The notes: a model not told the origin generated them from the sequence alone. DNA of 64,000 bases from a virus (IMGVR_UViG_3300022872_000001:64001-128000); one strand, 5' to 3'. Counted from the stretch's first letter, positions 1 through 13,164 are shown. Numbers and translations are program-made.

Positions 1-70
1 CTAGGTGATCCTGACCCTAAGCCCTTAGTCTAGTAAATACTACATGTCAATATTGATTTAAAGGAACATT

Positions 71-670
71 ATGTCTCTCATCTTTTCCAAGCTTACTGAA
101 GCAAATAAGAAACATTTTTTGGGATTTATCGGAGTTGATCCTGCTGAATTCTTGGCAGCACAATCCGAGGTACCAGCTAAGGTAGCTACCGCTGTGCAGC
201 GCATTAAAAACATGCCATTCGCTATTGAATCCACTTACGTTGGTCACTCCGGTGGCAAGGATTCAGTTCTGGTTCGGTACCTGGCGGATTTGGCAATTGA
301 TTATTTGCCGACGGTACATTCAACCAAACTAGAGGGGGTTCCGAATGAAGTTCATCCTTTAACGCGTGAATTTTTGTATGAACAACCTCGCGTCATTACA
401 TATTCTCCTTTGGATCTTATGCCTTCACTAGGCTATAAGACTCAGATTGATGGCACGCGCATTGCTGAGCACGATCGTTCCAATGGTCGCGCTGTGGACG
501 TTGTGATTGACGGTAAGCAGGTCAGTCGTAAGGAACTACCGTTGTATTTGGAGAATGGTCTGTTCGGTTTAAACTTTGTTTATCCTATCTACGACTGGTC
601 TGACGCTGAAGTATGGGCAGCCATTGCTCATTACGATATCCCATTTTCGGAGGAATATTTGTATGGCTAA
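71..670 (+). CDS. PAPS-reductase-family / PP-loop adenine nucleotide alpha-hydrolase-like protein
   Basis: PP-loop HSGGKDS; C-terminal YPIYDWSDAEVW matches the PIxDWxxxxVW signature of the PAPS reductase family; aagga RBS upstream. Confidence 0.75.
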   Translation: MSLIFSKLTEANKKHFLGFIGVDPAEFLAAQSEVPAKVATAVQRIKNMPFAIESTYVGHSGGKDSVLVRYLADLAIDYLPTVHSTKLEGVPNEVHPLTREFLYEQPRVITYSPLDLMPSLGYKTQIDGTRIAEHDRSNGRAVDVVIDGKQVSRKELPLYLENGLFGLNFVYPIYDWSDAEVWAAIAHYDIPFSEEYLYG

Positions 671-1352
671 TAAATATGGATCTATCATTTTTGCTCCTCA
701 CGTGGATGATGAGATAATCGGATGCTGGAGGTATCTCAAACCTCCATGCGCACATACGAAGGTTTTTTACTTTTATGAATTGTCAGCCACACGTCGGCGG
801 GAGGCATTCGAAAGTAGCCTGGCTTTAGGTTTCGATATTAGTTTTGAACCTACTGAAAAAGAAATCCTCGCTCATGTAGAATCTGCGTTTATCGTTCTTG
901 TACCTAGTCGCAAGGATAGCCACGCTGACCATAAAAAAATTAATGCCAAATATCGGCATTTGGCCACATCTTTTTATTCGGTGGATATGGTTGATGCTTT
1001 AACTCTTCCAGAGAAGGAAGCTAAGGATAAATTGGATGTACTGAATAAGTATTATCCATCCCAGGCTGAGCTGTGGCAGTCGAATGCCAAATACTATCTG
1101 TTTGAGAGTGTTCACAAAACAGATTATGATTCGTATTCGACCTGGACATTCCTAGATAACAATGAGGTAATTGGTAACCTTAAAATAACGGTAAAAACCG
1201 AATATAAGGAACAGGTGAGTGCTGCCTTGGATAAGCTACACGCCGTAGGTTGTTATTCGTTGAGCCATTTAATGGATATCGCCCTCAGTAATGCCCCGTC
1301 AGGTAAGGTCATTATTACAGACCCCGTAAATAACATTCGATTGGAAGCATAA
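663..1352 (+). CDS. PIG-L/LmbE-family deacetylase-like protein
   Basis: APHVDDE and HADH metal-binding motifs; start moved to ATG 663, which follows a ggagg RBS and overlaps the previous stop. Confidence 0.7.
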   Translation: MANKYGSIIFAPHVDDEIIGCWRYLKPPCAHTKVFYFYELSATRRREAFESSLALGFDISFEPTEKEILAHVESAFIVLVPSRKDSHADHKKINAKYRHLATSFYSVDMVDALTLPEKEAKDKLDVLNKYYPSQAELWQSNAKYYLFESVHKTDYDSYSTWTFLDNNEVIGNLKITVKTEYKEQVSAALDKLHAVGCYSLSHLMDIALSNAPSGKVIITDPVNNIRLEA

Positions 1353-1793
1353 ATGAAAATCGGAATTGAAGTTGAAGGACGTTTACGTGGTATCAAAACG
1401 ATCTTCATTGATCATACAGAGACTACCTCTCTTAAAGATTTATTGGATACGGATGCGCGTCTTGCTCATATAGGTCATATCTATATTTCGGATATTCCTT
1501 CGACTTGGGATGAATCTAACCTTATGCCCTTGGGTTGGGTATTTGATGGTTACACAATAACAATGGAGGTAACCAATAGCTTAATGGATAGATCCGTGTT
1601 GCCATCCAATATTTCCTTGATGTTGAATGTTGAAGGTATAGGTGACGACGGTTCTTCTTTTTATGAGCACATTGAAAACCTTCTACCTGATGACCAGGTA
1701 AAGTTCAATAACGGATTGAATGTTCTGTGCGTAAGCAAGCGGCATTTTATCCAAACCACTCCTGCTGAATTCCTGGATGATACGGAGATTTAA
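1353..1793 (+). CDS. hypothetical protein of the modification cluster
   Basis: 146-aa ORF abutting both neighbours with no gap; no motif recognised. Confidence 0.7.
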   Translation: MKIGIEVEGRLRGIKTIFIDHTETTSLKDLLDTDARLAHIGHIYISDIPSTWDESNLMPLGWVFDGYTITMEVTNSLMDRSVLPSNISLMLNVEGIGDDGSSFYEHIENLLPDDQVKFNNGLNVLCVSKRHFIQTTPAEFLDDTEI

Positions 1794-2942
1794 ATGACTG
1801 ATCTTATAATCGTGCCACTGGAGCCCCTGGTTGAAAGATATACGGGAGCCTGGTACGAACATATACCAACCGAATTCCGGCGTGTAAACTTTAACGTCAA
1901 GGTAATTGATGGCGTTACACTTGCATCCGAAGTAGTAGTTGGTACGTTTTTGGATATTAACTCTACTGCAAATTACAAATTCTCGCAGTTGATGGTAATC
2001 TCCAAGATGTTTCACAATAAGGAAATTAAGGACGGTACCGTATTCTTCTTTTCGGATATCGAATTCTGGGGATTGGAATCCGTTCGCCTTCTTGCGCAGA
2101 TGAATGGTATCAAAGTATTTTTGACAGGTTTCCTACACGCGGCTTCCTACACCAAGGAAGACGCTTTTGCCATTGCGGCACCTTATCAGCAATACACTGA
2201 ACTTGGCTGGTTGGCTGCTTTGGATTTGATCTTCGTTGGTTCGCTATATCACAAGAAGCAGGTACTCAATCTCCGTATTCTACCTCTTGCACAATCGGAA
2301 AGGGAGGTCGTTTCCATGGGAAATAAGATTCGCGTAACAAAGAATCCTATATTCCTGCAAGATTACCCTGCACTTGATACAGGCAATAAAAAGAAGAAGG
2401 TCCTGTTGACCAATCGCTTTGATATTGAAAAACGTCCGAATGAAACGTTGGAATTATTCTTCCGACTGAAAATTGAATTTCCAGAATGGGAATTTGTGGT
2501 GACTACTTCCAGGTCTTCCTTCAAAGGCAATAATCAGTTGATTATTAAGGAAGCCTTGCAGTTAGAGAATGAAGGTGTAATCACCATCAAGGCAGGACTA
2601 ACCAAACTCCAGTATTATCAGGAGCTAGCCGAATCAGCAATTATGGTAACGCATTCAATTGAAGAGAACTACGGCTATTGCATAGCTGAATCTCTGATTT
2701 ACGGTTGTGCCCCTTTGATGCGTAAGGGGTTAAGTCACTCAGAATTTACCGACACTGATGCTTTACTATTTGATTCATCCGGTGCCGCTCCTTACATAGT
2801 AGCAGACCCCGGTTCGGATTACGTTAAGCTTCGGACGCTTATGGCTACCTTCGGTACTCCTGCTTTCCCTAAAATACCATTCTTGGATACTTCAGGTATG
2901 GCTAACATCATCAAAGAGATACAGAACCTCACGGGAACATAA
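1794..2942 (+). CDS. GT-B fold (GT4-like) glycosyltransferase
   Basis: NRFDIEKRP and EENYGYCIAESLIYGCAPL (E-x7-E-like nucleotide-sugar-binding motif); typical size. Confidence 0.75.
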   Translation: MTDLIIVPLEPLVERYTGAWYEHIPTEFRRVNFNVKVIDGVTLASEVVVGTFLDINSTANYKFSQLMVISKMFHNKEIKDGTVFFFSDIEFWGLESVRLLAQMNGIKVFLTGFLHAASYTKEDAFAIAAPYQQYTELGWLAALDLIFVGSLYHKKQVLNLRILPLAQSEREVVSMGNKIRVTKNPIFLQDYPALDTGNKKKKVLLTNRFDIEKRPNETLELFFRLKIEFPEWEFVVTTSRSSFKGNNQLIIKEALQLENEGVITIKAGLTKLQYYQELAESAIMVTHSIEENYGYCIAESLIYGCAPLMRKGLSHSEFTDTDALLFDSSGAAPYIVADPGSDYVKLRTLMATFGTPAFPKIPFLDTSGMANIIKEIQNLTGT

Positions 2943-2943
2943 C

Positions 2944-4254
2944 ATGTCAGTCAATTACGTTGCAGCTGGAATCGAAGCTTACTCTGGCACACCTGGGCAG
3001 CTTCACGTTACGTATGAAGCCAACGAAAAAGAATCCTCTCACTTTGGTAGGAAATATAAACAATGGCTTACCACAGATAAGACGATAACGTACGCCAAAG
3101 GAGGTGGTAAGAAATCCATTATGGCTGCACCCTCTGACGTAATGGTACCTATCGGTTCCGCTGCTTTCGTTAAGGCATGTGGCTTAACTAAGATTCTGGC
3201 AAATCCTATCCATAAGAGTTTTGATAAGACCGCGTTTGAAGCTTTAGGTATTGAATCTATTGTGGATTCAGGAGGCTTCCAGATGTTGAAAGGAACTGTG
3301 CCTTTCGTACATCCGGATGATGTGGTCAAACGCTATAACGACACAGCCAATATTGGTATGCCCTTGGACTTACCTGTGCGTGGTTCTGTTGAGCATCTGT
3401 ATTTTGATCCGGTATCCAAGATGATCAAAGCCAACGATAAATATATTCTGGATAGGCTGAATCCGGGTATTGATCTGGCTTTGATTAGTCATGGTACGTC
3501 CTTGGAAAGGCGCAAACGTCGCTTGGATGTCCTTGATCGGGATGCGAAAGTTATAGCCATTGCAGGTTTGAACATTAAACCTGCGCCGGGTGTTGACCAT
3601 GTCTACAATTCAGTAGAGAATTTGATGTACGTCATCCATAGGTATCATAAGACTGCACGATACTTCCACGTCCTAGGTGTTACGTCCAAGCTATGGATTT
3701 TTATATACGCACTTCTGGACGCTACAGGCTATGTGAAGTCTATTGGTGGAGATTCGGTCAGCCATAGACTGGGTGCCTTAGTAGGTATGTACGACACCTA
3801 TGATTTTGACTCAGTAGAATTGAATCGTAAGACGCCTTACAAAACATCTCTTCCATGCAATTGCCCTATCTGCTCGGTAGTAGATGATTCGCGCATCATT
3901 CAGGAATCTATGATCTTGGAGAGTCACAATCTATGGGTTAGGTCTAAGCAGACAGAATTACTGAGCGATATGGCAAAATCTTATGTCAAGGGAACCTTGC
4001 CTATACGGGAGGTTTATAAGATTCTCCGTCTCACCATGGGTGAACCTCGTTTCGTTGCCATGATTCGTTACATAGAGGAAATCATGGTGACCAATAAATT
4101 CAAACCATTAAGGCATGGTAAAAAGGCTGGCTCCTTATTTGCAGTAGCCCCCAAACATGAAATCTCGGATTCAACCAAAGCCTTAAGCGGTCACTACAAA
4201 GAGGTACTTTCGAAATATGAAAAATTCCACAAAGTTAGTTTCTTCAAAAAATAA
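2944..4254 (+). CDS. tRNA-guanine transglycosylase / DpdA-like 7-deazaguanine insertion enzyme
   Basis: IVDSGGFQ catalytic motif, HVLGV, and Zn site CNCPIC...HN; lies next to folE and queE. Confidence 0.8.
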   Translation: MSVNYVAAGIEAYSGTPGQLHVTYEANEKESSHFGRKYKQWLTTDKTITYAKGGGKKSIMAAPSDVMVPIGSAAFVKACGLTKILANPIHKSFDKTAFEALGIESIVDSGGFQMLKGTVPFVHPDDVVKRYNDTANIGMPLDLPVRGSVEHLYFDPVSKMIKANDKYILDRLNPGIDLALISHGTSLERRKRRLDVLDRDAKVIAIAGLNIKPAPGVDHVYNSVENLMYVIHRYHKTARYFHVLGVTSKLWIFIYALLDATGYVKSIGGDSVSHRLGALVGMYDTYDFDSVELNRKTPYKTSLPCNCPICSVVDDSRIIQESMILESHNLWVRSKQTELLSDMAKSYVKGTLPIREVYKILRLTMGEPRFVAMIRYIEEIMVTNKFKPLRHGKKAGSLFAVAPKHEISDSTKALSGHYKEVLSKYEKFHKVSFFKK

Positions 4255-4654
4255 GAAGGATAAGAGTAAAAATAAGAGTAAAAATAAGAGTAAGGATAAA
4301 ACCAAGAAGAAACCGTTGGTACGCACCTTAGGTGGTTTGGTATTTTATCCGAAACTTAAGAAAACCCGCACTGATATTTTTTATTCAGTTGCAGAATGGA
4401 TAGAAGCTAAGAAGCCAGACAATGTTTATATCCATGATGCCCTGGAAACCTTGAATACAGCGAACATTGAAATAGTTGACGCTGTGTGTCACAGAGGTGT
4501 TTATACGAAAACCATAGTTCGACCTATGGTTACAACCACAGTAAATAAGATAGGATTACGCAATTTGCATCCGCGACAAAGTCCTACAATGGTTAAAACT
4601 ATGGCCGGCATTCACGTTGCTGACGTGCGCGACCATCACAAAATGGTCTACTAA
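4217..4654 (+). CDS. hypothetical protein with Lys-rich N-terminus
   Basis: 145-aa ORF with a KNKS tandem repeat at the N-terminus. Confidence 0.55.
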   Translation: MKNSTKLVSSKNKKDKSKNKSKNKSKDKTKKKPLVRTLGGLVFYPKLKKTRTDIFYSVAEWIEAKKPDNVYIHDALETLNTANIEIVDAVCHRGVYTKTIVRPMVTTTVNKIGLRNLHPRQSPTMVKTMAGIHVADVRDHHKMVY

Positions 4655-4667
4655 CAAGGAATTATTT

Positions 4668-5330
4668 ATGCAATATTCAAAAGATGTGGAAGTAGGAATG
4701 GCTGTTCATGAACACCTAATTGCGCGTGGTGTTGAGACTCCCTTCACTTTCAAAGAGCCTAATAAGGCCTCGATTGAACAGCATTTCATCGGCATCATGC
4801 AGGAGATCGGTTTGGACCTAGCAGATGATTCATTGATCGAAACACCAAAACGATTAGCCAAGCTATACACTACCGAGTTCTGTTCTGGTTTAGACTATCG
4901 TAATTTCCCCAAAGCTACCGTGGTAGAAAACAAGATGTGCTATGACGAAATGGTTCTGGAACGGAATGTACAGGTATACAGTCTCTGTGAACATCATTTT
5001 TTACCTGTGGTAGGCGGAGCCTTCGTGGCTTACATTCCGAATGAAAAGGTAATCGGTCTGTCCAAGCTTAATCGTATCGTTGACTTCTTTAGCCGTCGTC
5101 CTCAGATTCAGGAACGGTTAACTGCGCAGATTCAGGAGACCCTTAAGTTTCTTTTGGAAACGGATAACGTTGCGGTAGTCATTCAAGCTGAACATATGTG
5201 CGTTAAGCTGCGTGGTGTTGAGGATGCTTGCAGTGACACTACAACATCGAAATTGAGCGGCACATTCAAGACCAATCCTACTACGCGGGCTGAATTCTTC
5301 TCCCTGTGCAAAGGCTTGTTGCCTGTATGA
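4668..5330 (+). CDS. folE: GTP cyclohydrolase I
   Basis: ETPKRLAK, SLCEHHFLP, GLSKLNRIV...RRPQIQERLT, HMCVKLRGV motifs; start set to ATG 4668 (aagga RBS). Confidence 0.95.
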   Translation: MQYSKDVEVGMAVHEHLIARGVETPFTFKEPNKASIEQHFIGIMQEIGLDLADDSLIETPKRLAKLYTTEFCSGLDYRNFPKATVVENKMCYDEMVLERNVQVYSLCEHHFLPVVGGAFVAYIPNEKVIGLSKLNRIVDFFSRRPQIQERLTAQIQETLKFLLETDNVAVVIQAEHMCVKLRGVEDACSDTTTSKLSGTFKTNPTTRAEFFSLCKGLLPV

Positions 5331-5356
5331 TATCACCTGATTCCGAAGGACACATA

Positions 5357-5821
5357 ATGGCCATCCTTGAATTAACAAATAAGCCTATCATTGCAGATAT
5401 CGACGGATGCTGTTTAGATCCTGAGGAACGTATTCCTAACGCTGAGGCTAAGGATTGGGAAGGATACCATGCATTATGGCGCACAGACACGCCAATTATG
5501 GCGGGTTGCCTTACCTACGCCTTGTTCATCGAGTCAGGTCACAATCTGATTTTCGTTACAGCCCGGGAAGAAAAAGCCAGGGAATACACTCTGTTCCAAC
5601 TTCGGAAGTTCATATCACCTAACGTAACCTCTGATATGTTGTTGATGCGGCCCAATGACAGCTATTCCATTCCGGATGTGGTATTGAAACCCCAATTGGT
5701 TCAGGACGCAGGTTACAAAATTGAGGATATCTTGATGGTATTCGAAGACCGAACTGTAATGGTTAATGAGTGGCGACGATTGGGTGTCATCTGTTATCAA
5801 ACCGCACAACGCGACGATTAA
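5357..5821 (+). CDS. HAD-superfamily phosphatase (PseT/PNKP 3'-phosphatase-like)
   Basis: DIDG motif I, VTARE motif II, LMRP, FEDR; RBS before ATG 5357. Confidence 0.75.
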   Translation: MAILELTNKPIIADIDGCCLDPEERIPNAEAKDWEGYHALWRTDTPIMAGCLTYALFIESGHNLIFVTAREEKAREYTLFQLRKFISPNVTSDMLLMRPNDSYSIPDVVLKPQLVQDAGYKIEDILMVFEDRTVMVNEWRRLGVICYQTAQRDD

Positions 5822-5828
5822 GGCTCCT

Positions 5829-6089
5829 ATGGCTTTCTCTCTGTTTCCCAAATTGGTATATGGAATACAAAAGGTAACGTTTCATCCTAAATCAGCTATA
5901 GATTATATACTGGGTGATACGGTATACGTAATTATGGATCCCTTGGAACCTAGCATGGGAGCAGAGGGAATAATAACCCTAGTTTATCCGGATGACACAT
6001 ATCAGGTTGTTCTCACAGGTTTGAATGTTGGCGTATCTTTGCGCGTAAATAAGAAACAGTTAATAAATAAAAGGTTTGAAAATGAGTAA
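5829..6089 (+). CDS. hypothetical protein (possible SH3/KOW-like C-terminus)
   Basis: ORF fills the gap between HAD and queE; beta-rich pattern only. Confidence 0.5.
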   Translation: MAFSLFPKLVYGIQKVTFHPKSAIDYILGDTVYVIMDPLEPSMGAEGIITLVYPDDTYQVVLTGLNVGVSLRVNKKQLINKRFENE

Positions 6090-6888
6090 AGTTATCCCTA
6101 TAGTTTCTGTCATTCAAAATGTGGATCGTAACGTAAAAGCTAAGGAATATGATGCATTAGATGGCGATCTTCTCGTCACTTCCATATTCCGCACCATTCA
6201 AGGCGAAGGTCCCTACGCAGGTTACCCTTCTGTCTTCGTTCGGTTAGCTGGTTGCAACTTTGGTTCCAAGGATTCCAATTGCCAGTTTTGTGATTCTTTT
6301 TTCGGATTCGATCAAGGCCGGCGTGTTTCTTCCTTGCAGCTACTTGAAGAACTTACCAGTCTGCCAGGTTATAACTCTCAGGATGTGTTGGTCGTCACAG
6401 GCGGCGAGCCAACGCTGCAACTCGCACTTATCGAATTGTTGGTTAAGGCTAACCTGTATTTCGCGCATGTGCAGATTGAAACGAATGGTACTCAGTCTGG
6501 ATTCTTTAAGCGCGTAGAAGAATTGAATGTCCAGCGTCAGTTCATGACCGTGGTGAGCCCTAAGGCATCCTACCTAGCTAAGCGCTATTCGGAGCTTTCT
6601 CCTATCGTTATGTGGAACGCTACCTGTTTGAAGTTTGTTGTTGATTCCGATCCTGAAAGTCCACATCATATCGTGCCTCAATGGGCTTTTGATTCGCAGA
6701 AGAAGATCTACGTTTCTCCTATGGCAGTGTATCTCAAACCTTATGCTGGTGAAGTATCCAGCATCTGGGAGGACGGTTTGATCGATAAGGCAGCTACTGA
6801 AAAGAACTACAAATATGCGGCTGAGTACGCAATGAAACATAATGTCCTACTGTCGGTACAGACACATTTATTCCTGGGGTTGGCATAA
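6082..6888 (+). CDS. queE: 7-carboxy-7-deazaguanine synthase (radical SAM)
   Basis: IFRTIQGEGPYAGYPSVFVRLAGCN...CQFCDS, VVTGGEPTLQ, IETNG, SVQTH. Confidence 0.93.
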   Translation: MSKVIPIVSVIQNVDRNVKAKEYDALDGDLLVTSIFRTIQGEGPYAGYPSVFVRLAGCNFGSKDSNCQFCDSFFGFDQGRRVSSLQLLEELTSLPGYNSQDVLVVTGGEPTLQLALIELLVKANLYFAHVQIETNGTQSGFFKRVEELNVQRQFMTVVSPKASYLAKRYSELSPIVMWNATCLKFVVDSDPESPHHIVPQWAFDSQKKIYVSPMAVYLKPYAGEVSSIWEDGLIDKAATEKNYKYAAEYAMKHNVLLSVQTHLFLGLA

Positions 6889-9984: not shown

Positions 9985-10305
9985 ATGGCTGATTTCTTCA
10001 TTACTGAATCACAGGTTATTGGTAAGGTTCATGCTCTACGTAGTACTTGTAAACAGCATCATTTGAATCTTAAATACGGCTTTGTTATTGACGCTTTGTC
10101 TCGTGCCGTGGGCTGTAAGAGCCATGCTGATTTTCTAACGACAATCCGAAACCACAAACCAGTTAAGGCTTTCAGTTTATCTGTATTCATAGAACGCCTA
10201 TCTAGTCTAACCTCTCTTGAATTTGCAATTAAGGTAGAGGCAGTTCTTATTGATACGCAGTACGCAGAGAATTTTAATAACCATATCAAAGAAGCCGAGG
10301 AATAA
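9985..10305 (+). CDS. hypothetical protein
   Basis: aaggag RBS; 106-aa helical ORF. Confidence 0.65.
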   Translation: MADFFITESQVIGKVHALRSTCKQHHLNLKYGFVIDALSRAVGCKSHADFLTTIRNHKPVKAFSLSVFIERLSSLTSLEFAIKVEAVLIDTQYAENFNNHIKEAEE

Positions 10306-10456
10306 ACATATACGTGCTACAGATGCGGCCTCTATGAACAAAGCACATGTTCATCCTGTAATTCGAATTAATGCGCTGGATGATTTTCAGATCGAAACAA
10401 TATCGAACATCAATAAGCTTATCAAAAGTCTTAAAGATCAACTCAAGGAAATTAAA

Positions 10457-11134
10457 ATGCCTCAAGAAATTAAAGTTTTAAATCATGGATCCATTCGTTT
10501 GGTAGATCACATGGGTAGTGACCTTTCTGTTGTTAGGTCGGCCCGTGTTAGTTATGATGCTGAATGGCGCGCAGGGGAAGACGCAGGTAAAGATGCAAAA
10601 CTCATTAACTACCTGATGAAAAATCATCATACTTCTCCTTTCGAATCTGTTACCTTTACCTTTGAAGTCAAAGCCCCTATATTTGTGTTTCGCCAGTGGC
10701 ATCGTCATCGCACCTGGTCTTTCAATGAAATCTCTGCGCGTTACTCGGAATTACCGGAAGAGTATTACGTACCTGAGGTGTGCAAGATTACAAGCCAATC
10801 TGTAAATAATAAGCAGCAGCGAACTGAAGAAATTATTGAGTCAGCTATCTATGTAAAAGATCTTATAGATAGACAATGCGCGGGCGCGTTTGCTACCTAT
10901 AAAGAACTACTAGCCAAAGGTTGCCCGCGTGAACTTGCCCGAGGTGTTTTGCCAGTTAATACCTACAGTAAAATGTTTGCCACAATTGATCTGCATAACC
11001 TTCTTGGATTCATTCGTTTGCGTGATCATAGCCATGCCCAATATGAGATTCAGGTATATGCTCAAGCCATGCTGGAACTGATTGAACCTATTGTACCAGA
11101 ATCAATTAAGGCTTTTAAATCAACCTTGGTTTAA
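10457..11134 (+). CDS. thyX: flavin-dependent thymidylate synthase
   Basis: RHRTWSFNEISARY (RHRx7SxR), HHTSPFE, PRELARGVLP, HAQYEI; aagga RBS before ATG 10457 (the frame is open further upstream). Confidence 0.95.
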   Translation: MPQEIKVLNHGSIRLVDHMGSDLSVVRSARVSYDAEWRAGEDAGKDAKLINYLMKNHHTSPFESVTFTFEVKAPIFVFRQWHRHRTWSFNEISARYSELPEEYYVPEVCKITSQSVNNKQQRTEEIIESAIYVKDLIDRQCAGAFATYKELLAKGCPRELARGVLPVNTYSKMFATIDLHNLLGFIRLRDHSHAQYEIQVYAQAMLELIEPIVPESIKAFKSTLV

Positions 11135-12268: not shown

Positions 12269-12744
12269 ATGCCTAACGACTATCGAACGCACGTATTAAA
12301 TACGGAAGCTAGTAGAGTAGAGCCAAGTGGCTCGAAGTGCAAGGATTCCTTTAGTTAGGAATGTGATATAGTCTACTCTGCATAGTGATATGCAGCAGCC
12401 TGTAACTGAGGACGACAGGCGGTTATAGTCTAACGAACTATAGCGAATATAATGTCTTGTGATTCCTTCCTCAGCGTTCCGTTCAACATCGCCAGCTATG
12501 CATTGCTAACTGAAATGATGGCACAACAGGTAAACATGGTTGCTGATGAATTTATCTGGACAGGCGGCGACTGCCATATCTACTCCAATCATTACGAACA
12601 GGTGGAAGAACAGTTATCGCGTGAACCATTCCCGTATCCAACATTGAAGCTCAATAAAGCTGCATCAATTTTCGATTATAAATTTGAAGATATTGTTATC
12701 GAGGACTATCAATGTCATCCAGCGATCAAAGCGCCAGTAGCCGT

Positions 12745-13164
12745 ATGACCTCCCTTACTGAATCTAACGCCAACGACTATTTAGTTTGGTCAGACATGGT
12801 TCAGGATTATGATCCTGATTTAACTTGGGAGCGCATAAAGAATGCCTGGAATACGATCCTGTTTAATCCTGACATATACGGATATTTGATAAGGGTGGAC
12901 AATCAGATCGTAGGCTTCGCGCATTTGGTGTACCATACATTCCCATTTGCGGTAGGCACTACGTGTTATTTATCCGATCTCTACGTTAAGCGTGAGTTTC
13001 GACGTAAAGGAATCGCTACCGAAGTTCTTAATCAATTTATTCAAATTGCGAAAGACAGTAAATGGGAAAGGTTATATTGGGTTACTGAACACGGTAACCC
13101 GGCGCGTACTCTATACGACTCAGTTGCAAAGTGTGAGTTTGTGCGCTACCACACAGATTTTTAG
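12745..13164 (+). CDS. GNAT-family acetyltransferase
   Basis: [16 protein letters not shown] acetyl-CoA motif A; N..ARTLYD motif B; start at the ATGA overlap, 12745. Confidence 0.85.

Follow-up and report, generated by a model that had tools for sequence, protein, structure and literature searches.

A candidate sugar-decoration module in a QueC-less 7-deazaguanine DNA modification locus of an uncultured phage

Introduction

Could a phage attach a sugar to a 7-deazaguanine base in its DNA? The question is raised by a locus at positions 71–6888 of a 64,000-nucleotide stretch of DNA (the window), which comprises bases 64001–128000 of a 192,170-bp IMG/VR virus record (IMGVR_UViG_3300022872_000001; completeness estimate 82%) from an uncultured jumbo phage whose nearest cultured relative is the Burkholderia jumbo phage BCSR5. 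There, genes for FolE, QueE and a DpdA-like DNA guanine transglycosylase lie among genes for a glycosyltransferase (GT) of the GT-B fold, simply called GT-B below, a PIG-L/LmbE-like deacetylase, a PP-loop ATP pyrophosphatase and a 146-residue protein. To our knowledge, the 7-deazaguanine derivatives described from phages so far are all small (preQ0, preQ1, ADG, G+, 2'-deoxy-7-deazaguanosine (dDG), 7-carboxy-7-deazaguanine (CDG), and methyl and formyl forms), and DNA glycosylation has been described for pyrimidines only. An earlier interpretation of the window made without database searches, which we call the sequence-only reading, had proposed that this phage places an amino sugar on a 7-deazaguanine. 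Our analysis indicates that the locus is a variant of phage deazaguanine systems; the observation behind that proposal is confirmed and the first interpretation is partly supported. Judging from sequences and structural models, we put at roughly 50% the probability that the locus encodes a QueC-less phage 7-deazaguanine DNA modification with a built-in sugar-decoration module.

Linkage of the glycosyltransferase with DpdL

The evidence that carries this reading is the genomic company that GT-B keeps. Profiles for every gene of the locus were used to score 97 fetched loci, 92 of which hold a relative of GT-B. DpdL is encoded in 86 of these 92 loci, FolE in 76 and QueE in 59, and among the six loci without DpdL, five have GT-B near the end of the fetched locus, the sixth being locus L021. 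At least four types of DpdA stand beside GT-B, namely those of this window, of phages ACP17 and X1, of PA5oct and of locus L010, and cultured phages whose hosts are Burkholderia, Xanthomonas, Acidovorax, Sinorhizobium, Synechococcus and Pseudomonas show the GT-B/DpdL linkage too, the module being present in Burkholderia phage BCSR5 and in Xanthomonas phages X1 and BUDD. The association that the sequence-only reading noticed in one phage is thus a recurrent one, with GT-B relatives residing in FolE/QueE/DpdL/DpdA loci.

The linkage is asymmetric. Five fetched loci (RHph_I1_18, Ahp1, Bakedbeans, D479 and MA9V-3) have DpdL without GT-B, and so does phage phiST, whose DNA carries plain dDG (Cui et al., PMC10516641). 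Since DpdL can occur without GT-B, while GT-B almost never occurs without DpdL, the step catalyzed by GT-B would come after the DpdL step. PA5oct, which has the GT-B and DpdL pair, possesses DNA that resists G-site restriction enzymes (PMC12191111).

Fold and motifs of GT-B

The AlphaFold2 (AF2) model of GT-B, based on 29 homologs, has a predicted local distance difference test (pLDDT) score of 89.9 and adopts the GT-B fold with two Rossmann domains. Foldseek and VIA comparisons group it with retaining GT4 enzymes, and its VIA structural matches include SPS (6kih, Z 27.7, 340 residues aligned at a root-mean-square deviation of 3.5), BshA (3mbo, Z 26.3), MshA (3c4q, Z 25.4), GlgM (Z 25.3) and SenB (Z 24.8), all full-length. 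The Pfam family PF00534 matches GT-B at 1.2e-5 with 25.4 bits against a cut-off of 26.4, and most homologs have a precomputed PF00534 match. Both the EX7E motif (E291..E299, EENYGYCIAE) and the pair R208/K213 (NRFDxEKxP) show no variation in sets of 11 and of 29 sequences; from our knowledge of the GT4 family we take these to be residues of the donor-diphosphate site. Because these donor-site motifs are invariant, GT-B looks like an active nucleoside diphosphate (NDP)-sugar transferase, and its earlier assignment to GT4/GT-B, in the company of BshA and MshA, holds. The T4 alpha- and beta-glucosyltransferases are absent from the 50 best Foldseek or VIA rows for GT-B, which does not thereby exclude a likeness to them.

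Relatives of GT-B are numerous: 276 matches were obtained in a set of 5.8 billion proteins, often on contigs of 200–270 kb, and at least 563 in IMG/VR. Two of them, EST35_0317 of the Pseudomonas phage PA5oct (L013:5846-6907) and ASD50404 of ACP17 (L003:6971-7999), are annotated as hypothetical proteins; they are homologs of the GT4 enzyme and each adjoins DpdL.

The deazaguanine pathway without QueC

The left edge of the window cuts the locus, which continues upstream for about 2.9 kb with genes for four further proteins: QueD, the DpdL homolog, a glycosyltransferase of family GT2 and a GH154-like (DUF2264) protein (Table 1), all of which the sequence-only reading overlooked. As their sequences and folds attest, FolE, QueD and QueE should be able to make CDG. 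That reading had carried the route on to preQ0 by way of QueC. No PF06508 (QueC) match was found at E ≤ 0.01 in the 192-kb record, the control being positive in 14 of 14 genomes, so the preQ0 route would not be phage-encoded and the phage-encoded route ends at CDG and DpdL.

The 128-residue upstream protein is 49% identical to ASD50405 of ACP17 and matches PHROG 17812 at 3.5e-24. Its DpdL-signature region reads LGSPHFHYF, against LGSPHRHLF in ASD50405, with F replacing R; the signature given by Cui et al. is LxxxHRHxF, in place of the CxxxHGH of QueD, and DpdL is the proposed CDG decarboxylase (PMC10516641).

In two of the loci that lack GT-B, those of the Vibrio phage Bakedbeans (gp176, L016:8191-9342) and the Chryseobacterium phage MA9V-3 (L018:8398-9279), DpdL carries a fused N-terminal domain, some 200–270 residues long, for which Pfam gave no match and which may be another DpdL-coupled enzyme. 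A purine phosphoribosyltransferase (L005:2093-2554, Synechococcus phage BUCT-ZZ01) and a deoxynucleoside monophosphate kinase (L017:10522-11067, Vibrio phage D479) lie within or beside DpdL clusters, hinting that in some DpdL phages the base may additionally be processed as a nucleotide.

The DpdA-like transglycosylase

In the DpdA-like protein, the VDSGGFQ and PCNCPIC motifs are conserved, and D108-S-G-G, C305, C307, C310 and H328 are invariant. Its profile matches ArcTGT (1iq8) at E 1.9e-5 with both motifs covered; the protein is 54% identical to that of BCSR5 and 25% to the Motura TGT, and tblastn gave no match to the ACP17, X1 or nt-1 type. Its isoelectric point (pI) of 9.3 fits DNA binding, DNA being the predicted substrate. 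In six loci this DpdA type is followed by the very basic 145-residue protein, which has no Pfam or other family match and may be a DNA-binding partner of the transglycosylase.

The PIG-L protein and its clade

The deacetylase identity that had been proposed for the PIG-L-like protein is supported by its metal-binding and catalytic motifs, its Pfam score being below the cut-off. The motifs APHVDDEIIGC and SRKDSHADHK are conserved in six homologs, D89, H91 and H94 of the alignment being invariant, and Atlas searches gave a TM score of 0.56–0.59 to PIG-L clusters by structure and a feature score of 0.93. A profile search of the PDB with the PIG-L alignment returned only noise.

On the GT-B tree, all loci that bear PIG-L group together as a single clade with 12 members. 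Nested within it, a sub-clade of 10 loci also has the genes for the PP-loop and 146-residue proteins, always in the order PP-loop, PIG-L, 146-residue protein, GT-B. The most distant member of the clade, L010, has a GT-B that is 34% identical and lacks the PP-loop and 146-residue genes, and its PIG-L is of a different lineage, above the Pfam cut-off at 36.8 bits. The DpdA type changes inside the clade; therefore, PIG-L tracks the GT-B subfamily rather than the transglycosylase. This pattern fits a clade-specific switch of donor to N-acetylhexosamine (HexNAc) followed by deacetylation, by analogy with MshA/MshB and BshA/BshB. The earlier suggestion that the two enzymes add N-acetylglucosamine (GlcNAc) and then deacetylate it gains comparative support from the GT4 fold, the PIG-L motifs and the one-clade linkage, while the placement of the sugar on the base is something we still infer.

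In the Xanthomonas phage X1, the deposited coding sequence of the PIG-L-like gene (L002:5702-6484) starts at 5837, losing the AHxDDE motif of the longer open reading frame (ORF).

The PP-loop enzyme and the 146-residue protein

The SGGKDS and DWSDAEVWAAI motifs of the PP-loop protein are invariant in six sequences, and its best solved relatives are the adenylyltransferase domain of FAD synthase (8rom, 7.6e-6) and CysD (1zun, 1.2e-5). Two identities were considered and rejected: the protein is not QueC, since it has no PF06508 match and its relatives belong to the PAPS-reductase/FAD-synthase/CysD branch, nor is it a PAPS reductase (CysH), since it ends in ...SEEYLYG without a C-terminal redox Cys of the ECGLH type. 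In locus L009, which comes from a related uncultured phage, folE is followed by another PP-loop paralog (12381-12959, profile E 1.3e-17), the second in that locus.

The sequence-only reading left the 146-residue ORF as an unknown, for which structural matches now point to a QueE-like partial barrel. In an exhaustive VIA comparison of its AF2 model (pLDDT 94.6), three QueE structures are among the six best matches (6nhl, Z 7.1; 5tgs, 6.7; 4njg, 5.9), with about 110–120 residues aligned; Foldseek gave no match at E ≤ 0.001. The family counts 258 representatives. Its invariant N-terminal IEVEGRLxG is in register with the IQGEGPxxG of QueE, with an hhalign probability of only 7.5% over 15 columns, and hhalign against ASD50402 of ACP17 gave 23.7%, neither value being taken to prove homology. 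The 60 members compared share no conserved Cys, the CxxxCxxC-type Fe-S motif of radical-SAM QueE is missing, and longer or fused forms were looked for and none found. As a lead from the model, the protein may be a cluster-less QueE-like subunit that binds a pterin or deazapurine, QueE itself being an enzyme that binds the pterin from which CDG is made.

A hypothetical pathway

Taken together, we hypothesize that CDG would be made by FolE, QueD and QueE, with the DpdL homolog as the proposed CDG decarboxylase, and that the basic DpdA-like enzyme would exchange the base into DNA. GT-B would transfer HexNAc, probably from UDP-GlcNAc, onto the deazaguanine, its substrate being either the free base, for later insertion by DpdA, or the base within DNA, after which the PIG-L protein would strip the acetyl group and free the amine. 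The PP-loop enzyme and the QueE-like protein could then use ATP to activate a carboxylate or phosphate for further coupling, a candidate reaction being the formation of an amide, either with the carboxylate of CDG or at the amine freed before, in the manner of MshC and BshC. In this phage only, GT2 might add a second sugar, possibly a uronic acid, which the GH154-like enzyme would dehydrate. Virion DNA would be expected to contain, as the end product, a 7-deazaguanine that bears an amino sugar and that would block restriction enzymes and perhaps also glycosylases that attack plain deazaguanine.

The stage at which the sugar would be added may be reflected in the charge of the proteins, GT-B (pI 5.7), PIG-L (6.2), the PP-loop enzyme (5.2) and the 146-residue protein (4.5) being acidic and the DpdA-like (9.3) and 145-residue (10.2) proteins basic. 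The acidity of the sugar enzymes, together with GT4 relatives that act on small molecules and a partner that resembles QueE, weakly favors decoration of the free base before insertion. Since bulky substituents at C7 are tolerated by bacterial TGT, as exploited in RNA labelling, a free base that already carries its sugar could nevertheless be inserted. If CDG is decarboxylated, the sugar could be attached at C7 or C8 (as a C-glycoside), or at N2 as in huimycin; if CDG survives, an ester or, following deacetylation, an amide is possible, and the PP-loop enzyme would activate the base as QueC does.

One version of the pathway joins all parts of the locus, and as a whole we consider it fairly unlikely. 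The QueE-like protein would hold CDG or 7-deazaguanine while GT-B adds HexNAc and PIG-L frees the amine, the PP-loop enzyme, substituting for QueC, would close an ATP-driven bond (an amide or other), a DpdA with a widened pocket would insert the bulky, sugar-bearing base post-replicatively, and GT2 with the uronate dehydratase would extend the modification to an unsaturated disaccharide. This would be the first sugar-bearing purine known in DNA, built at the free-base stage.

Weighing the sugar-decoration reading and its rivals

Several points weigh against sugar decoration of the base. The counts of the survey, including the 86 of 92, come from loci gathered by GT-B similarity, many of them close kin, and are not independent events; likewise, PIG-L may have become associated with the GT-B clade just once or twice in its ancestry and not repeatedly. 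Pfam PF02585 (PIG-L) scores 18.3 bits on the window's protein against a cut-off of 28.2, and PF01702 (TGT) has no match to the window's DpdA-like protein. The nearest GT4 folds of GT-B all act on small-molecule acceptors, and the acidic sugar enzymes may never touch DNA. Moreover, if DpdL decarboxylates CDG, C7 would be left without an O or N acceptor, and C- or N2-glycosylation would be needed.

An alternative that we regard as unlikely is that QueC is replaced by the PP-loop enzyme, a PIG-L-like amidase and the QueE-like protein acting in concert, with an amide or other non-sugar base, such as an ADG-like one, as the product. The PP-loop enzyme would adenylate CDG held by the 146-residue protein and the PIG-L fold would serve as an amidase of the base side chain, leaving GT-B to a separate step or another target. 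The missing QueC speaks for this, and QueC is likewise a PP-loop enzyme that adenylates CDG (PMC13329287); in addition, the three genes always travel together and the 146-residue partner resembles QueE, whose product is CDG. However, the PP-loop protein belongs to the PAPS-reductase/FAD-synthase/CysD branch rather than to PF06508, and the trio occurs only inside the GT-B clade, always beside GT-B. The characterized LmbE-family enzymes that we know of act on GlcNAc or GlcN amides, which argues against an amidase of the base. Further, DpdL is also present and, on its published reading, removes the very carboxylate in question.

Alternatively, although we find this quite improbable, the sugar enzymes might make a soluble small molecule, either a huimycin-like deazapurine or a pterin glycoside like the cyanobacterial biopterin glucoside, while the DNA receives plain dDG as in phiST. 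This would agree with the acidity of the sugar enzymes, with the plain dDG of phiST and Vibrio phage VP1, and with huimycin as a precedent. Small-molecule GT4 enzymes are the nearest folds, and among them the tetrahydrobiopterin glucosyltransferase 9v0l matches GT-B at Z 23.2; dozens of other GT4 enzymes, however, match GT-B at least as well as this pterin enzyme does. A lytic phage has no evident gain from such a metabolite, GT-B is tied to DpdL and DpdA and not just to FolE and QueD, and, given the tolerance of TGT noted above, a glycosylated free base could itself be insertable.

The record holds no full ThyA-family hydroxymethylase, the only trace being a thyA stump at window 12452-12745 that covers the C-terminal part (model positions 168-266), and a hydroxymethyl-pyrimidine was set aside as a likely sugar acceptor on this ground. 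The last alternative, that GT-B, PIG-L, GT2 and the GH154-like protein are chance or co-expressed neighbors acting on host envelope glycans, phage proteins or hydroxymethyl-pyrimidines, could appeal to the cell-surface glycan metabolism that the GT4, GT2, PIG-L and GH154 families mostly serve and to the restriction of GT2 and the GH154-like gene to this phage among the loci examined, the latter being rare in phages, but it is weak and very improbable against a GT-B/DpdL link that spans several DpdA types and hosts from cyanobacteria to Burkholderia, genes that abut or overlap those of the deazaguanine pathway, and the lack of a full hydroxymethylase.

Comparison with known systems

Among the closest described systems is that of phiST, where DpdL and DpdA3 make dDG (Cui, Hutinet et al., NAR 2023, PMC10516641). 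Common to both are FolE, QueD, QueE, a DpdL-type QueD paralog and a TGT-superfamily transglycosylase, as well as the absence of QueC. By contrast, phiST is without GT-B according to its authors, whereas the present phage adds GT4, PIG-L, PP-loop, QueE-like, GT2 and GH154-like genes, its DpdA-like protein is of another subfamily, and its DpdL motif has F for R. ACP17, which is named as a DpdL phage in the same study, carries a homolog of GT-B adjoining its DpdL gene; expression of its dpdL and dpdA alone, two genes between which its GT-B is located, gave no dDG (PMC10516641), and a glycosylated deazapurine as the product may be the explanation.

In mycothiol (MshA/MshB, with MshC) and bacillithiol (BshA/BshB, with BshC) synthesis, a retaining GT4 GlcNAc transferase is likewise followed by a PIG-L/LmbE deacetylase. 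MshC and BshC ligate onto the freed amine, and an ATP-using enzyme stands alongside here as well. The acceptors are inositol phosphate or malate in those pathways and probably a deazapurine in this one, the ATP enzyme here is a PP-loop protein instead of a CysRS-like or BshC-type ligase, and at 11–12% identity there is no sequence-level orthology.

Transfer of GlcNAc onto a free 7-deazapurine by a glycosyltransferase has its precedent in huimycin (PMC7439116). Huimycin and dapiramicin bear GlcNAc or a disaccharide on N2, and the hui cluster of Kutzneria albida (PMC7439116) combines FolE, QueD and QueE with a glycosyltransferase, as seen here. Unlike the product predicted here, huimycin is a soluble actinomycete secondary metabolite, made via QueC (preQ0) and O-methylation without DpdA or DpdL. 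The alpha- and beta-glucosyltransferases of T4 and later glycan-adding phage glycosyltransferases resemble the present case in their GT-B fold, their use of NDP-sugars and their role in DNA hypermodification and anti-restriction; however, they act on hydroxymethyl groups of pyrimidines in DNA, whereas the record studied here has no full hydroxymethylase and its GT-B is linked to a purine pathway. The sequence-only reading had suspected novelty, and indeed we found no paper on glycosylated 7-deazaguanine in DNA, in a literature coverage that leaves out most subscription journals.

Gene order, transcription units and the variable slot

All ten ORFs named in the sequence-only reading are present on the + strand, abutting or overlapping their neighbors (Table 1). 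That reading had named them mostly correctly and described them as one tightly packed operon; the packing stands, while promoter-like motifs point to a different partition. The motif YAGTAAATA occurs seven times in the window against 1.8 expected, on the + strand only (31-39, 4539-4547, 17623, 20060, 20129, 34368 and 44859), and five times in L012 against 0.35 expected, where further sites lie at 3905, 6858 and 9166, and it is placed just ahead of gene starts. It precedes queD, the PP-loop gene (window 31) and folE (window 4539), which suggests that the locus consists of three transcription units rather than one operon. It is similar to the core of the T4 late promoter, TATAAATA, and could serve this phage as a promoter.

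Table 1. Genes and promoter-like motifs of the locus. Plain positions are those of the window; positions prefixed L012 are those of the fetched locus L012, from which window coordinates are obtained by subtracting 12000.
Feature	Position	Strand	Basis or remark
QueD	L012:9203-9694		PF01242, 1e-14
DpdL homolog, 128-residue QueD paralog	L012:9704-10090		similarity to ACP17 ASD50405, PHROG 17812
GT2 GT-A glycosyltransferase, DDD motif	L012 about 10092-10901		PF00535, 6.5e-5
GH154-like (DUF2264) protein, uronate dehydratase homolog	L012:10822-12033		PF10022, 1.8e-65
Promoter-like motif TAGTAAATA	31..39	+	32 nt ahead of PP-loop gene
PP-loop ATP pyrophosphatase, PAPS-reductase-like, 199 residues	71..670	+	SGGKDS, DWSDxEVWA, PHROG 2302
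PIG-L/LmbE-like metal-dependent deacetylase or amidase, 229 residues from ATG at 663	663..1352	+	motifs, structure search
146-residue acidic protein, QueE-like partial barrel, without Fe-S cysteines	1353..1793	+	AF2 model, VIA
GT4-type GT-B retaining glycosyltransferase, 382 residues	1794..2942	+	PF00534, motifs, AF2 model
DpdA-like DNA guanine transglycosylase, TGT superfamily, 436 residues, pI 9.3	2944..4254	+	motifs, ArcTGT profile match
145-residue very basic protein, pI 10.2, Lys-rich N-terminus	4217..4654	+	no family match
Promoter-like motif CAGTAAATA	4539..4547	+	ahead of folE
FolE, GTP cyclohydrolase I; likely start ATG at 4668	4617..5330	+	PF01227 5.8e-63, NF006824 3.3e-87
HAD phosphatase, PNKP type	5306..5821	+	PF25109 4e-12, PHROG 415 3.6e-21
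Small ORF, 107 residues (86 if later ATG)	5766..6089	+	no family match
QueE, radical-SAM 7-carboxy-7-deazaguanine synthase	6076..6888	+	PHROG 2076 1e-40, TIGR04508 2.9e-19, PF04055 1.2e-7

Between DpdL and the PP-loop gene, different phages have different sugar-related genes. In this phage the slot is occupied by GT2 and the GH154-like gene, a pair found in none of the other loci examined; in L006 by an SDR NDP-sugar epimerase/dehydratase (1.3e-25) and an AAA_28 protein, and in L009 by a GT-like protein of 453 residues (4955-6316). The GH154-like protein scores 221.8 bits with PF10022 against a cut-off of 25, and matches the beta-D-glucuronate dehydratase 9o4u at E 7.8e-50 and the beta-1,2-galactosidase 8oi4 at 1.9e-47. 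The GH154 beta-D-glucuronate dehydratase yields a 4,5-unsaturated uronate on terminal glucuronic acid. In 50,697 phage records this GH154/DUF2264 homolog has no more than four matches, which are weak or unannotated, and the gene looks like a recent gain from bacteria.

Two genes near the end of the locus are less easily placed. Among the loci examined, the HAD phosphatase was seen only in this phage and BCSR5, and its membership in the pathway is uncertain; the small 107-residue ORF has no homolog in any related locus and no Pfam match.

Implications

If the proposed modification is real, glycosylated deazapurines would join the DNA bases as a new chemical class. Their synthesis would require a GT4 enzyme to work with a kind of acceptor that is new for it, and a transglycosylase would have to accommodate a very bulky base should the sugar be put on before insertion. 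With the large GT-B family (at least 563 relatives in IMG/VR) and several cultured carriers, the prediction is directly testable. Deazaguanine DNA is a target of restriction enzymes, END nucleases and Dag glycosylases, and such a base would also matter in the arms race of phages with them.

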